Both the position numbers and the translations under genes were made by a program. The notes below the pieces were generated by a model that saw only the letters and a program-made list of their open reading frames with translations, was not told where the DNA came from and did not search any database. From a virus (Duplodnaviria; Caudoviricetes): a DNA stretch of 30,598 nt. The first letter of the stretch is position 1. Each line of letters begins with the position of its first letter. Location of the stretch: the IMG/VR virus record IMGVR_UViG_3300033067_000698, positions 1 to 30,598 of that record, one strand, 5' to 3'. Positions 3,087 to 27,939 of this stretch are shown one piece after another.

Positions 3087-3611
3087 TTAGAATCGATAAC
3101 CAATACCAGACCTTACAGAATGATCTTCACGAATAAATGCTGAATTAAAATTAGCATATCGGTATTCAACCCTTGCAAACCAATTATTCATATGATATTC
3201 TAGACCAGCACCGGCAGTATAACCAACATGAACCTTATTAAATTCACTCTTATAAGCTAGACCGCCACTGACAAATGGAACAAAGTTATTATAATTATAA
3301 CCAAGCCTAGCACGAGTTGAACCATCCCAATTACTACGGAATTGATTTAGATTATAATTAAAATCGGTTTCGATTCCTAGGATGATATTGCTAATATCAA
3401 AATTATAACCGGCAAAAACTCCTAGGAAATTGTCCCTATTGTATGAATATTGACCGCCAAGATAAAATCCGGCAAGGGCTGGCCTATAATTAATTTCCTC
3501 TACCACATAACGTTGCATATAGGGCTGACGAATATCAGCAGCAACACTTGTTGAAGCCATTCCAAAAATCATTGAAGCGGCAAGACCAAGGCCGATGAAA
3601 AACTTACGCAT
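3087..3611 (-). CDS. outer-membrane beta-barrel protein, Omp25/RopB family
   Basis: Signal peptide ending ...SVAAD; GFYLGG, GIETDFNY, GSTRARLGY, PFVSGGLAY, GYTAGAGLEY and ARVEYRY motifs; C-terminal GIGYRF BAM signal. Confidence 0.88.
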   Translation of the reverse strand: MRKFFIGLGLAASMIFGMASTSVAADIRQPYMQRYVVEEINYRPALAGFYLGGQYSYNRDNFLGVFAGYNFDISNIILGIETDFNYNLNQFRSNWDGSTRARLGYNYNNFVPFVSGGLAYKSEFNKVHVGYTAGAGLEYHMNNWFARVEYRYANFNSAFIREDHSVRSGIGYRF

Positions 3612-3762: not shown

Positions 3763-4701
3763 TTATTTTGCTAAATTATTGAAAAATTCTTCATCAAAAG
3801 AATCGTCTTCATCACTTACAGCTTTAGTAGGTTCTTTGAAAGGTTTTTCTTTCAATTTCTTACCAAAATCTGTTTTAGCAGCGATTTCTTCTCTTACTTC
3901 TTCTGAAGGTTCATTCAAATCTAACACTTCATATAATTTATTTTTTAATTCATCATATGATAAGAATTGATCTGGTTGTAAGAATTTTTGCAATGAATGT
4001 TCTGATTCCCAAATCAATTTAATTTCGTCGTCAGATTCAGCCAAAGGACTTACATCAAGGAATTTAGATAGATCATAATTAATATTACCATCTACTTTTC
4101 TAATTCTCAATTCAAAATTAGCGCCTTCCCATAGATCGAATGGATTAATTGCATCTGGAATTTTACCCTTATAGTTTTCAGGATATAGTTTTTCAGGATA
4201 CATTTTTTCTTCGATTTTGTCAAAGATTTTCTTACCCATTTTAAATAGTTTTACTTTACCATTATTGGATGGGTTAGCAGGGTCTTCAACGATAAAGACA
4301 TTAACGTAGTATTGTAATTTTCTTTTTTGCTTACGTGCTTGTAAACGAGTTGGAGATTTTTCATCGTCTGATTGTTTCCACAATTTAGAATTGTATTCTA
4401 CAACCGGACATTTTTGACCAATAGTTGTTAATGATTTCTCAATTAACCATTTGCCTGATGGACCTTCGAAACCGAAGGAAAACATTTTAATGAATGGAAC
4501 GCCGTCGTCACCATCTACAGCAGGAGCAGGAAGGAACCTAATAACAGCATAACCATTACCAGTTTTATCTAATTCTGGATACCAGAAATCTTCATTGGTA
4601 TTATTGCTATAACTTGTGTTATTAAGTGTTTCAGTGTATTTCTTTAGTTCTTCTAAAGTTTGTTGTGAGTTCTTTTTTAGTGATTTAAAGTCTAATGTCA
4701 T
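3763..4701 (-). CDS. 32: T4-like single-stranded DNA-binding protein gp32
   Basis: DKTGNGYAVIRFLPA, CPV, RKQKRKLQYYVN, GKVKLFKMGKKIFDKI, NPFDLWEGANF and NYDLSKF motifs, acidic C-tail. Lies downstream of 59 and 33 as in T4. Confidence 0.96.
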   Translation of the reverse strand: MTLDFKSLKKNSQQTLEELKKYTETLNNTSYSNNTNEDFWYPELDKTGNGYAVIRFLPAPAVDGDDGVPFIKMFSFGFEGPSGKWLIEKSLTTIGQKCPVVEYNSKLWKQSDDEKSPTRLQARKQKRKLQYYVNVFIVEDPANPSNNGKVKLFKMGKKIFDKIEEKMYPEKLYPENYKGKIPDAINPFDLWEGANFELRIRKVDGNINYDLSKFLDVSPLAESDDEIKLIWESEHSLQKFLQPDQFLSYDELKNKLYEVLDLNEPSEEVREEIAAKTDFGKKLKEKPFKEPTKAVSDEDDSFDEEFFNNLAK

Positions 4702-4763
4702 GTTGATATATTCCTATATTATGTTGATATTTTGTTGTTTTCCACGATATCATAATATAAGAC

Positions 4764-4771
4764 TATTTATA
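4764..4771 (-). promoter_or_regulatory. T4-type late promoter
   Basis: TATAAATA in the intergenic region upstream of gene 32. Confidence 0.75.
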
Positions 4772-4774
4772 TAA

Positions 4775-5347
4775 TTAGTTAGAGAATTTTTTAAGCAATG
4801 CTTTTTTTATTTTGTCCCTATCATATTTCAAAAATGGATATATTTTATCCATTTTGTGAACAATATCTGCCCACAAAGGATCATCATTTAGTTTATTATT
4901 TAAATAGCCAAATGAATCTGAAACATCGATTAAAGCAATCAAGGTTTCAATTTCAATTTTTTCTTCAATGTATAGTTTAAGAATATGCGGGTAGCTATTC
5001 TTTTCGCAAGTGAAATTTTCATTAAAATTATCCTTAAGGTAATTACAATCTTCAATAAAGAGATATGTGAAATTTTCTAATCGCTTTTTCCATTTGAGCA
5101 TTATACTAAATGCTTCATCGCTTGTCAAGTCTTTTATCCATACATTAGGATTATTTTTTATGTTGGCAATTAGTATGTCTTCTGCATCTAATCTTTTAGC
5201 CAATTTTTCAAAGAAATATTTATCTTTTCTTTTTTCAAATGTGGCCGGCAATACCTTGATATTACCAGAATATTTAAAATAATCATAATCAGAAGTGAAA
5301 TGGCGTTTCAATGCTAAATATTTTTTATAACATTCAAATGGAGTCAT
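4775..5347 (-). CDS. 59: T4-like helicase loader gp59
   Basis: YLALKRHFTSDYDYFKYSG and FEKRKDKYFFEKLA motifs; synteny 33-59-32. Confidence 0.93.
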   Translation of the reverse strand: MTPFECYKKYLALKRHFTSDYDYFKYSGNIKVLPATFEKRKDKYFFEKLAKRLDAEDILIANIKNNPNVWIKDLTSDEAFSIMLKWKKRLENFTYLFIEDCNYLKDNFNENFTCEKNSYPHILKLYIEEKIEIETLIALIDVSDSFGYLNNKLNDDPLWADIVHKMDKIYPFLKYDRDKIKKALLKKFSN

Positions 5348-5540
5348 TTTTCAATGCTTTTAATTGTTTAGCTTCTGTCTCTACTTTAGTTCTGATGTCA
5401 GAATTTTTTCTAATGACAGAAGCAATAAAATCTATTTCTAGTTTATTTACTTCACAATAATGAATGGCGGCTTCAATATAACTTGAGCCGCCAGCCACAA
5501 TTTTTTCTATATTTTTAATATGATCTTTAGTTTTTAACAT
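5334..5540 (-). CDS. 33: T4-like late transcription coactivator gp33
   Basis: SYIEAAIHYCEVNKLEID...KVETEAKQL; synteny with 59. Confidence 0.85.
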   Translation of the reverse strand: MLKTKDHIKNIEKIVAGGSSYIEAAIHYCEVNKLEIDFIASVIRKNSDIRTKVETEAKQLKALKNDSI

Positions 5541-6157: not shown

Positions 6158-6535
6158 TTAAATTGGAAATGAAAATGGATTTGATGCTTTAGTTTGCAAC
6201 AAATTTTGGAACTCTTTTACACCAAAAATATAAATAAACACTGGCAGTCTAGGACCGGTTACAGTTTCAAAGAGTAATTGATAAATGCGTTGAAATCCGT
6301 GTCGAATGGCTTTGCCATCAACGCCAAAATACTTCTTAGTAATTTCATAGATTTCAAAAGTCAAACCTTCTTCATTAATAGAAGGATTAATATTCATTAC
6401 ATCGTTAATCCAAAGTATTACTTTTTCAGCCTCGGAACGATAAAATTCAATATCACCATCAATTTCTTCGTTAACGTCAAGATGCTTATTATCTTGAAAA
6501 TAATAATAGGCAGCTAGAGTCTTCATTGAAATCAT
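6158..6535 (-). CDS. stand-alone anticodon-binding domain resembling the class I lysyl-tRNA synthetase C-terminus
   Basis: LTFEIYEITKKYFG...IRHGFQRIYQLLFETVTGPRLPVFIYIFG matches the LysRS1 C-terminal pattern F..lY..LlG...GPR.g.F....G. No HIGH/KMSKS catalytic domain. Confidence 0.7.
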   Translation of the reverse strand: MISMKTLAAYYYFQDNKHLDVNEEIDGDIEFYRSEAEKVILWINDVMNINPSINEEGLTFEIYEITKKYFGVDGKAIRHGFQRIYQLLFETVTGPRLPVFIYIFGVKEFQNLLQTKASNPFSFPI

Positions 6536-6969
6536 TATAGATACTCCACATTAAATTCTTTTTTAAATCCATCATTGATCATAGTGTATAACCATTTCAA
6601 ATTTTCTATTTGTAATACTGATGGCATTTCCATAAATGTATTGATAGGAATTATATGAATTTTTTCTTCTTCTAAAGTTTTAGCATCAAAAATAGCATCG
6701 CCGCAATCAATAGAATAAATATACATTTCAAAATCATTTGGTCTATATAATAGACCATTATATGTAAACTCATTTACATTAAAATGTAATCCGCATTCTT
6801 CTTTAATTTCTCTTGAAATTGCTTCGTCGGCAGTTTCGCCTTCTTCAATTTTACCACCAAGAAAATTATATTTACCAGCTTGCCATTCTGGTTGTAATTT
6901 ACCAATTAAAAGTATATGTTTACTACCTGTAACTATACCTAATACATATTTTTTATTCGCCATATTCAC
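6535..6969 (-). CDS. Nudix hydrolase
   Basis: Nudix box GGKIEEGETADEAISREIKEECG. Confidence 0.92.
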   Translation of the reverse strand: MNMANKKYVLGIVTGSKHILLIGKLQPEWQAGKYNFLGGKIEEGETADEAISREIKEECGLHFNVNEFTYNGLLYRPNDFEMYIYSIDCGDAIFDAKTLEEEKIHIIPINTFMEMPSVLQIENLKWLYTMINDGFKKEFNVEYL

Positions 6970-7691: not shown

Positions 7692-7767
7692 TGGTGGGGC
7701 CACTCGGATTCGAACCAAGATATGACGTCTTATGAGGACGCGGCATTAACCATTATGCTATAACCCC
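7692..7767 (-). tRNA. tRNA with CAU anticodon (Ile2/lysidine-type or elongator Met)
   Basis: GGGGTTA...TGGCCCC-A-CCA acceptor, D loop TAATGGTTA, anticodon arm GCGTC-CTCATAA-GACGT, T loop TTCGAAT; 76 nt. Not an initiator (1:72 paired, no GGG/CCC in the anticodon stem). Confidence 0.93.
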
Positions 7768-8419: not shown

Positions 8420-9094
8420 TTATACTCCTTGTTTAAAAGCTTTCATTACTTCATACATAATAATTGAAGCAGCGGATGCCACATTTAGAGAACGCATTAC
8501 ACCAAGTTGTGGAATGCTGACAACATGCTCAATTTTTGACAAAATATCATCAGGAATACCTGTTCCTTCTTGCCCCATAATGAAACAAGGCTTTAGACCA
8601 AAATAACAGCCACGATTAGGATATTTTACTGGTTCAATACAAGTTAAATAATCACCATTACTTCTGGTAGATACACCAATTTTATTCAAAAAATCATCAA
8701 TATCTTCACCACCAGTTTCAACGGCAATTGGTAGATATTTATTATCTTCCATAATTTTGAAAAAAGCATCTGCATCAATAGTTGTTTCATCAACCATTGC
8801 AGAATACTTTTCAATAGTTACATAATTTTGGGCACCAACTGCACCACGACGATCAAAATTCTTTCTACCAATGAGAAGAACCTTTTCGGCTCCAAACATG
8901 GCAGCAGAACGAATAATGCCAGATACATTAAGATCACCAGTAATGTTAAGTGCTGCAACAGCATAAGGAAGGCGAGACTTGGCTACAATTTCGTCCAATT
9001 CTTCCTTAGTCATATGCTTAAATTCTTCCCTCACATTGAAGGTATTCCTTTCAGCATTTTCCTTAATCATATCAGAATAATTAATAGTAGTCAT
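8420..9094 (-). CDS. SpoU/TrmH-family (SPOUT) RNA 2'-O-methyltransferase
   Basis: Motif 1 NVSGIIRSAAMFG, motif 2 IMGQEGTGI, motif 3 IPQLGVMRSLNVASAASIIMYE. Confidence 0.92.
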   Translation of the reverse strand: MTTINYSDMIKENAERNTFNVREEFKHMTKEELDEIVAKSRLPYAVAALNITGDLNVSGIIRSAAMFGAEKVLLIGRKNFDRRGAVGAQNYVTIEKYSAMVDETTIDADAFFKIMEDNKYLPIAVETGGEDIDDFLNKIGVSTRSNGDYLTCIEPVKYPNRGCYFGLKPCFIMGQEGTGIPDDILSKIEHVVSIPQLGVMRSLNVASAASIIMYEVMKAFKQGV

Positions 9095-9428: not shown

Positions 9429-9519
9429 TGGTAGGAGTGCAAGGATTCGAACCTTGTGGAAAACGGTAATCAGCCGCTAAAGTGTTATAAGCACTTCCCC
9501 TGTGCCAACAGCCACTCCC
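9429..9519 (-). tRNA. atypical tRNA-Ile(UAU)-like RNA with a second GAU anticodon-like hairpin
   Basis: GGGAGTG/CACTCCT-A-CCA acceptor; CAAGG-TTCGAAT-CCTTG T arm; mini D arm CTGT-TGGC-ACAG; AAGTG-CTTATAA-CACTT; AGCGG-CTGATTA-CCGTT; 91 nt. Confidence 0.8.
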
Positions 9520-9970: not shown

Positions 9971-10051
9971 TGGACCCCTAGACAGGATTCGAACCTGCAT
10001 TTTCAATCCAGTTACGGGTTAGAGGGTAGAAGCCACTGCCGTTACTAGGGG
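9971..10051 (-). ncRNA. tRNA-like RNA (Arg UCU-type loop), rearranged arm order, copy B
   Basis: CCCCTAG/CTAGGGG-T-CCA acceptor; GCAGG-TTCGAAT-CCTGT T arm; TA then ACGG..AGTGG-CTTCTAC-CCTCT..CCGT; then AACTGGATTGA. Confidence 0.8.
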
Positions 10052-13296: not shown

Positions 13297-13321
13297 AATT
13301 AAGTTCCTTTTTTAAAAACAA

Positions 13322-13727
13322 AACAACTTTTCTGTTGCTAGGCAAGTTGACAGCCCCGAAAACATGGTTCTTACCTAAGAGCCCTTAAAGGGAATTAGGC
13401 AGCTAGCGCCATATCTCCATAGTTTGCATTATCGTTTGCATCTATGTTTATTTATGCTTTTACGCAGTCATCTACGGATAACTCAATGTTTTTTATCTAT
13501 TGCCAATCGATCCTAGGTCAACCCCATCAGGAACAATTATATTACCAAATTTCTTGGACTATTTTCTAGAATATCGTCCAATACTTTCCCTCATTATCTA
13601 TCAGGCTTGCGCTCGCCGTCATCTAGATTGCTGCTACCTACATGGTAGGATATAATTGCTCTTGGTGGAGTTGGCGGGAGTTGCACCCGCGTCTTGCCAA
13701 TTTTAATAACATGTCAACGTTATCAGT
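13322..13727 (-). ncRNA. ssrA: permuted (two-piece) tmRNA, alphaproteobacterial type; tag (A)ANDNANYGDMALAA
   Basis: Acceptor piece ends GCGGG-TGCAACT-CCCGC-CAACTCC-A-CCA (CCA at 13663-13665). Coding piece starts GGGGTTG at 13525 (G3:U70). Tag ORF at 13395-13439; GCAACAGAA near the 3' end. Outer ends are approximate. Confidence 0.93.
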
Positions 13728-13731
13728 CTCT

Positions 13732-13762
13732 TATTTATAGCATAGTCAGAGTCAGTTGTCAA
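13732..13762 (-). promoter_or_regulatory. overlapping early (sigma70) and late promoter for tmRNA
   Basis: TTGACA-N17-TATAAA, where the -10 is part of TATAAATA. Confidence 0.8.
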
Positions 13763-27222: not shown

Positions 27223-27939
27223 TTATCCCTCATAGTGTTTCAGTAATGCTTCTTTACGTTGCATAAAATTTGAATGCAACTCTGGCCAATTGTGAATACC
27301 AGAAGTCTCAAACGCATTCTTAACAGCATTATGGTCTAGATTCTTCACTCTGTCAAGGGCTTTATATTCCACATGTGGGTCCTGTTGAAATACATGCCCA
27401 AATACGTGTGATGATGAGTAATTACTTGAATTAAGTAATGATTTATGTTCTGCTATATCTGGACCATAATCTTTATGGCCACCTTGGGCTCTAAAATTAA
27501 ATGCTCCACCAGTATCAATAGAATGTAAATCACCTGTTTCTTTATGTCTCATTATATTATCATGCTCTAAACCAACTACGTCCCAATTTTTGGTTAGCAC
27601 AGCAGCATGATACATGGTAGCAATTTGTTCTCTTTGTTTACCATCTAAATTTTCAAAATGATGTGGTTTCATTCGTTCTAAATTTTCATTATATTTTGTT
27701 GAAATCGCATGTTTATCATCATGTTGTTCATATTTTGGATTTAATGTATGTAATCCCATCAAACCATATAACTTTGATGTCAATTCTTCCGTCTTGGCTT
27801 GATCTGGATTTTTATAATATTTTACATAATGTTTTTCACCAGTTTCTGTGTCAACATGGATGCCACCATCATTAGACCCCATTTGTGTTCCCGGTAATTT
27901 AGCCAATGCCTCTTGAATAATATGTTTAAATTTTTTCAT
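27223..27939 (-). CDS. kinase-like (HipA/PI3K-like fold) protein with T4-type capsid-targeting-like N-terminus
   Basis: GTQMGSNDGG, YVK, E, NWDVVG...DN and IDTGG motifs; N-terminus MKKFKHIIQEA. Confidence 0.65.
   Translation of the reverse strand: MKKFKHIIQEALAKLPGTQMGSNDGGIHVDTETGEKHYVKYYKNPDQAKTEELTSKLYGLMGLHTLNPKYEQHDDKHAISTKYNENLERMKPHHFENLDGKQREQIATMYHAAVLTKNWDVVGLEHDNIMRHKETGDLHSIDTGGAFNFRAQGGHKDYGPDIAEHKSLLNSSNYSSSHVFGHVFQQDPHVEYKALDRVKNLDHNAVKNAFETSGIHNWPELHSNFMQRKEALLKHYEG

Follow-up and report, generated by a model that had tools for sequence, protein, structure and literature searches.

Class I lysyl-tRNA synthetase (LysRS1) ends in an alpha-helix cage, its domain V, which the accessible text of PMC2978374 treats as homologous to the cage of glutamyl-tRNA synthetase (GluRS). 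The GluRS reader of base 36, Arg358, lies in domain IV, and class I LysRS has a tyrosine where an arginine of GluRS stacks on U35 (PMC12088422, accessible part). U35 and U36 are named as LysRS-1 determinants in the accessible portion of PMC9976931. Virus-encoded enzymes of this lineage are also on record. GenBank phage records searched with full-length LysRS queries returned HGTV-1 only, and its gp197 (L082:5608-6735; 375 aa, annotated as a class I LysRS) matched only the C-terminal half of those queries. Single synthetase modules can live alone, as does Glu-Q-RS, and other free-standing synthetase domains include Trbp111, AlaX and YbaK; these are cellular catalytic, editing or OB-fold modules. 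The tRNA itself is contested between bacteria and phages, and T4 Pnk and Rnl1 provide tRNA repair against anticodon nucleases. PrrC cuts, and AriB recognises, the tRNA-Lys anticodon loop, and phages counter with a tRNA-Lys of their own (PMC10802454, PMC11555353 and PMC13191261, each as far as its accessible text goes), as with the T5 and SP15 tRNA-Lys against PARIS and PrrC170. The known phage counters replace or religate tRNA, whereas the literature searched yielded no account of a protein cap.

Here, we describe a viral family that shares with Glu-Q-RS the habit of a single synthetase module living alone, and differs from the free-standing domains above in being a viral class Ib anticodon cage. 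The window, meaning the whole stretch of DNA analysed (30.6 kb), belongs to a record that is about 18% complete; all of its features given below lie on the minus strand. A block of T4-like gp32, gp59 and gp33 genes (3763..5540) marks the window virus as T4-like, and a gp59 scan for close relatives of the phage gave none, the best reaching 44%. The alphaproteobacterial host proposed in the preliminary description is likely, given a permuted alphaproteobacterial-type tmRNA (13304..13755) as host indicator. The intervening segment of this tmRNA (13395-13724) is about 110 bases longer than the Rfam model. Within the 30.6 kb there is no tRNA-Lys, and a promoter scan gave chance level only. A tRNA-Ile(TAT) with a long variable arm was called at 9429-9519, and a 90-base Ile(TAT) occurs also in L113. 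At 9974-10051 lies a weak tRNA-like sequence whose anticodon may be CUA (Rfam 27.3 bits, which is below the cut-off; missed by ARAGORN); CUA-type tRNAs were called also in G014 and G002. Additionally, the window of this T4-like phage encodes an outer-membrane beta-barrel-like protein (3087-3611; weak Porin_4 match, E 0.0016) and a 238-aa ORF (27223-27939) that looks kinase-like by eye from an HNIM...IDTG motif, with no confident Pfam match.

The gene of interest, at 6158..6535, encodes P0001, a protein of 125 aa. The ORF has zero internal stops and a codon adaptation of 0.67, against 0.59-0.82 in 18 other window genes, so that it is complete, as first described, and ordinary in codon use. Directly upstream lies a gene for a Nudix hydrolase (6535..6969), which carries a GGAG ribosome-binding site 9-12 bases upstream of the P0001 ATG, and whose stop overlaps the P0001 start as TAATG. 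The translational coupling to Nudix that had been claimed thus holds in the window; the adjacency is not conserved in relatives, where no Nudix gene abuts the family gene except for an unrelated NadM-Nudix in two related loci. Further upstream on the same strand are a tRNA-Met(CAT) gene (7692..7767, 1.16 kb away) and a SpoU/TrmH-family RNA methyltransferase gene (8420..9094, 1.9 kb away). Of the sequencing runs listed, none is of RNA, and four low-share runs give no coverage of the P0001 ORF.

P0001 is matched by NCBIfam NF001968 (E 2e-8, profile positions 454-524 of 528) and by TIGR00467 (E 1.2e-5, 419-510 of 515). A family profile of 66 relatives reached residues 441-508 of the P. horikoshii LysRS (1IRX) at E 1.4e-7 and a GluRS at E 0.008. 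Profile-profile comparison with six full-length LysRS1 gave 99.7%, spanning only P0001 residues 40-119, and the Atlas neighbours of the protein are anticodon-domain clusters at 0.95-0.96; a second Atlas search gave nothing further. The AF2 model has six helices (pLDDT 96.2, pTM 0.89). Of 48,161 chains compared with it by VIA, 1irx_B alone reached a Z of at least 8 and so took rank 1 (Z 8.2; 83 aligned, rmsd 2.5), and six GluRS filled ranks 2-7 (Z 5.1-7.4). A Z of 8 is modest for a helical protein, and the VIA ranking and the sequence evidence agree. Foldseek of the model found no match in the PDB, and among viral structures its top match was a 511-aa protein at E 0.023. Pfam, PHROGs and phmmer against the PDB gave no match to P0001; Pfam Anticodon_2 (PF19269) likewise missed it, and only one of the 66 family members touches PF19269 (E 0.009). 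By sequence, the LysRS1 link of P0001 is far beyond chance. The preliminary description had named a helical signature, which reads FQRIYQLLFETVTGPRLPVFIYIFG in P0001 and occupies residues 81-105, and had read the protein as a LysRS1 anticodon domain; the NCBIfam and 1IRX profile matches and the structural ranking all sustain that reading.

A reading of the gene as a class I LysRS enzyme was rejected. It lacks the Rossmann catalytic domain with HIGH/KMSKS (PF01921), and its 125 aa match positions 416-510 of a 515-position profile only; the full LysRS architecture of about 500-550 aa, with SC-fold and domain IV before the cage, does not fit, as residues 1-39 are unalignable to full-length LysRS1. 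From homology and model together, P0001 is domain V of class I LysRS, the alpha-helix cage at the C-terminus, to which 39 new N-terminal residues are added. The family-specific N-terminal part (residues 1-39; 6419..6535) contains an AAY(L/F) helix and a DxN motif, and the cage core (residues 40-119; 6179..6418) holds a predicted pocket of Y63, K67, F81, Y85, G94, R96 and G105. The predicted fold and the Y/F-K-F-Y-G-R-G pattern are those of the LysRS1 cage. The phage family differs in having no Rossmann, CP or SC-fold part and no domain IV, in its new N-terminal helix and C-terminal P-F/L motif, and in a stand-alone form found in phages and unseen in the sampled cells. With the bacterial GluRS anticodon domain it shares a homologous cage, as the VIA and Atlas results reflect, but Tyr85 and Arg96 are as in LysRS1, where GluRS has Arg and Glu/Gly.

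The seven pocket residues are the only positions conserved at 92% or more in the 66 members: F81, G94, R96 and G105 at 100%, Y85 at 98%, Y63 at 97% and K67 at 92%. In 77 cellular LysRS1 domains, F81, Y85, G94, R96 and G105 are invariant, Y63 stands at 81% and K67 at 83% (otherwise R). Other positions invariant in LysRS drift in the 66 members, namely Q59 (64%), L88 (47%), G90 (20%), P95 (77%), G98 (71%) and F100 (85%). Since the members were recruited by similarity to P0001, these conservation values are inflated; a partial control comes from patterns that did not include the G-x-R motif, with which nine distinct viral proteins were found, and of these R96 is kept in 9/9 and P95 in 2/9. In the register of the profile alignment, Y63, K67, F81, Y85, G94 and R96 correspond to 1IRX F473, K477, F487, Y491, G500 and R502. 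Levengood et al. 2007 are said to have found that Y491 and R502 of LysRS1 read U35-U36. P0001 Y85 matches the class I LysRS tyrosine that stands in place of the U35-stacking GluRS arginine in the accessible text of PMC12088422. The family also has residues of its own, including the AAY(L/F) helix, F39 (70%; E in all cellular rows), F109 (91%; T/S in cells) and P120. The proteins are acidic, with a median net charge of -6, and the core carries -2 against -4 in cellular LysRS1. In six related pairs dN is 0.51-0.62 and dS runs from 1.7 to saturated; the family is under purifying selection.

HMMER over 1.84 billion representatives gave 77 matches, of which 65, the query included, are stand-alone proteins of 113-181 aa, most of them aligning from near the N-terminus; the first full-length LysRS appears at rank 41. 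The 12 matches dropped comprise two repeat surface proteins, three full-length LysRS and seven fragments. P0019 and P0059, considered as multi-copy family members, were rejected as repeat surface proteins. The 65 proteins, known as sequences only and without genomic context, form together with P0002 the 66 rows of alignment A3, at 23% mean column identity. Word-index protein searches returned two near-length relatives and none longer, and six relatives with a profile. Pattern scans of viral contigs yielded 18 distinct contigs, 15 with a stand-alone gene (14 distinct proteins) and three with a full-length LysRS1; the same scans with P0001 alone or with sub-alignment A6 gave nothing. An A7 pattern scan of GTDB genomes also gave nothing, the only match of a metagenome pattern scan was an archaeal-type LysRS, and two queries of 50,697 GenBank phage records found no family member. 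In 301 alphaproteobacterial genomes, 228 of which matched the family profile, no stand-alone member was seen among the best 150 matches, with 82 weaker matches beyond these. None of the 150 scores above 84 bits or begins before profile position 20, and with one exception they fall in frames of at least 286 aa. A single short frame in G223 and four matches in G130 look like broken or cut LysRS ends. A description of the family was not found in the literature searched, which covered few subscription journals.

Seven carriers of the family gene, of 170-376 kb, reach 90% completeness or more, and terminal repeats are present in three. By profile search each has one family copy. Their GC content is 36-53%, five carry the permuted alphaproteobacterial-type tmRNA, and gp32 is present in four and absent in three. 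Because gp32 occurs in only four of the seven, the family gene spans different phage groups. The LysRS catalytic part is absent in all seven. When 80 alphaproteobacterial LysRS1 were run against them by tblastn, the sole match was the small gene; TIGR00467 and PF01921 searches agree, TIGR00467 having missed the small gene in G011, and their weak extra matches are CysRS-like proteins and a transposase-like ORF. The window likewise has no LysRS catalytic domain, in a record about 18% complete. The claim that the phage kept the anticodon module alone is thus supported by these genomes, and a full-length synthetase in relatives, named earlier as a reason to doubt it, is found in none of the seven. 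Some aminoacylation-type genes were seen in the carriers: a 292-aa catalytic-only GluRS-like gene in G003 (L274:9653-10531), a 402-aa GluRS-like gene in G319 (L113:8577-9785) and CysRS-like genes in G004, G014 and G319. All seven encode 29-56 tRNAs including tRNA-Lys. Unusual features of the phage tRNA-Lys genes, 11 in number, were noted in G002, G004, G011 and G319: a U replaces the A before CCA in five genes, a G2-U71 pair occurs in several, and the loops of two carry U32/C38. An RNA ligase is present in 7/7 (Rnl1 in six, RtcB in one), a count made in carriers only, and its gene is never adjacent to the family gene, the nearest being 6.5 kb away.

Trees on 86-87 columns are weak, and they place the family in two ways. 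One tree sets 77 of 78 stand-alone rows on a single branch (SH-aLRT 94). In a second, free tree with outgroups the stand-alone rows split, the P0001 group falls near phage-type full-length enzymes, and one stand-alone clade appears in 0/200 bootstrap trees; the constrained one-clade tree is 3.4 log units better and not rejected (p-AU 0.58). With an N-terminal profile from which the P0001 subgroup was left out, P0001 itself reaches 26.2 bits, and none of 83 full-length C-termini exceeds 1.5. On these alignments, a single origin is favoured, the source presumably being a LysRS1 of alphaproteobacterial or phage type. L107 is among the nearest full-length relatives in both trees. The complete class I LysRS genes at L107:4525-6204, L108:4477-6204 and L111:4594-6180, in viral records of 195-500 kb, have HIGH and KMSKS that look intact, and in these three no second, stand-alone copy was seen. 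Together with HGTV-1 gp197 they resemble the family in being viral and of the same synthetase lineage, but viral LysRS genes keep all or much of the catalytic region and the stand-alone family keeps none.

The idea that P0001 is a remnant in decay, or half of a LysRS that has been split, draws on the same-type full-length LysRS1 in other large viral records (3/18 contigs), on the incompleteness of the window record and on the one free tree that sets the P0001 subgroup beside full-length enzymes, but it is largely refuted by the seven carriers that lack the catalytic part, three with terminal repeats, by ORFs that stay intact and alike in size with mean column identity at about 23%, by the common N-terminal helix that full-length C-termini do not match, and by dN well below dS.

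The surroundings of the gene give a softer kind of evidence. Across the 15 loci, at least five tRNAs lie within 6 kb in seven (each including tRNA-Lys), one in four and none in four. The family gene is closer to tRNAs than random positions are (Fisher p 1e-4 to 9e-4, on incomplete tRNA lists) and than other 80-200-aa ORFs are (p 0.013). It is also closer to tRNA-Lys than other 80-200-aa ORFs (Fisher p 0.002), Lys ranking first of 19 tRNA types, with Pro (0.006) and Ile (0.008) as runners-up and a Bonferroni p for Lys of about 0.04; in two of the seven genomes the distance to tRNA-Lys is 32 and 63 kb. The tRNA-Lys proximity is a soft signal. Neighbours (74 scanned) vary among loci and include NAD-salvage operons, NADAR with Macro, SpoU and a GmrSD-N domain. 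In two phage NAD-salvage operons (L087:1867-4791 and L089:4366-8330) the family gene is inserted between NadM-Nudix and NAMPT, in L091 it lies between the NADAR and Macro genes, and in G014 alone a SpoU methyltransferase gene follows directly. A fixed partner gene, whether Nudix, SpoU, ligase or an aaRS catalytic core, was rejected, as none is constant across the 15 loci.

P0001 most likely acts like a LysRS1 anticodon reader set free, and from the conserved residues its pocket probably still binds the tRNA-Lys anticodon loop. The stand-alone cage of an alphaproteobacterial-type LysRS1 would cap the U35-U36 anticodon loop, and this capping would help lysine tRNA to stay in use under attack by host anticodon nucleases. 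That the protein protects or rescues tRNA-Lys from such nucleases is a tentative reading of the sequence, which we place somewhat short of even chances. In its favour stand the action of PrrC and AriB on this loop and the wealth of tRNA and ligase genes in the carriers. Low tRNA affinity is expected because only domain V is kept and domain IV, which holds the base-36 reader in GluRS in the accessible text of PMC12088422, is absent; a lone acidic domain should bind tRNA weakly. Weak, reversible capping would slow cutting by nucleases that read the tRNA-Lys loop, or would hold the cut halves for the phage RNA ligase, and such a cap would not block charging and decoding for long. The proposed target is the one addressed by the T5 and SP15 tRNA-Lys against PARIS and PrrC170, as far as the accessible sources describe it. 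That large phages of Alphaproteobacteria domesticated a host-type LysRS anticodon reader as a cap physically shielding tRNA-Lys, as opposed to replacing or repairing the tRNA, is doubtful at present and is offered as a possibility. Counting against the shield, a cap that held the loop tightly would itself stop charging and decoding, and the carriers already encode their own tRNA-Lys. Additionally, DUF4435 (AriB) occurs in 2/151 and AAA_13, which we take to be linked to RloC/PrrC, in 5/151 alphaproteobacterial genomes, in a survey that scored six candidates per genome. The lysine demand of AAA-rich genes, suggested earlier as the need for protection, holds in the window, where 9.0% of 4451 codons are Lys and 76% of these AAA; with carriers as high as 53% GC it is not a common factor.

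The same conserved pocket would also serve a protein that binds the tRNA-Lys loop, or a tRNA-like mRNA hairpin, in order to steer translation and not to protect. By sequestering host tRNA-Lys or competing with the LysRS1 of the host, it might give phage tRNAs the advantage or repress certain mRNAs. No host nuclease is required here, such genes being rare in the sampled genomes, and each of the seven near-complete carriers encodes a tRNA-Lys itself, in some cases with changed bases in the loop (U32/C38). However, U35-U36 is common to phage and host tRNA-Lys, removal of tRNA-Lys would hurt a phage with genes as lysine-rich as those of the window, and there is no conserved upstream RNA element, Rfam having given only tRNAs in seven loci. 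We consider this unlikely.

A further proposal casts the protein as a targeting subunit, through which a phage enzyme for tRNA modification, repair or aminoacylation would reach the loop of tRNA-Lys. The SpoU gene next to the family gene in G014 and near it in the window fits, as do the GluRS-like genes of G003 and G319 (2.3 kb away in G319) and the RNA ligase of every near-complete carrier. Yet SpoU is found in only one of these seven genomes, GluRS- and CysRS-like genes are absent from G001, G002 and G011, and the 15 loci have no fixed partner, which leaves the proposal quite unlikely.

The uridine-reading pocket might instead have been repurposed as a sponge that takes up a short oligonucleotide or a small nucleotide signal of host defence, such as a cyclic nucleotide containing uridine. 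The small size and acidic nature of the protein, and its pocket of aromatic residues plus Arg, would suit this, and some loci lie among nucleotide-handling genes (NAD salvage in L087 and L089, NADAR/Macro in L091, Nudix in the window). The residues kept, however, are those common to LysRS1, with no new invariant polar residue, and the neighbours differ among loci, as expected in accessory regions. Known sponges are oligomers that bind at interfaces, which may count against this role as well. It is improbable.

The family is missed by Pfam and PHROGs, and hence sits unannotated in phage genomes. P0001 is small and confidently modelled, its predicted ligand is defined, and Y85 and R96 are evident sites for point mutation, so the capping of tRNA-Lys is directly testable. 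The counter-defence role is possibly new. Bacteria commonly counter phages by cleaving tRNA, and the descriptions found of phage answers concern spare tRNAs and repair ligases. If the capping reading is true, a stand-alone synthetase tip in T4-like and non-T4-like phages would be a third kind of answer; alternatively, it may represent a new phage way to steer translation.
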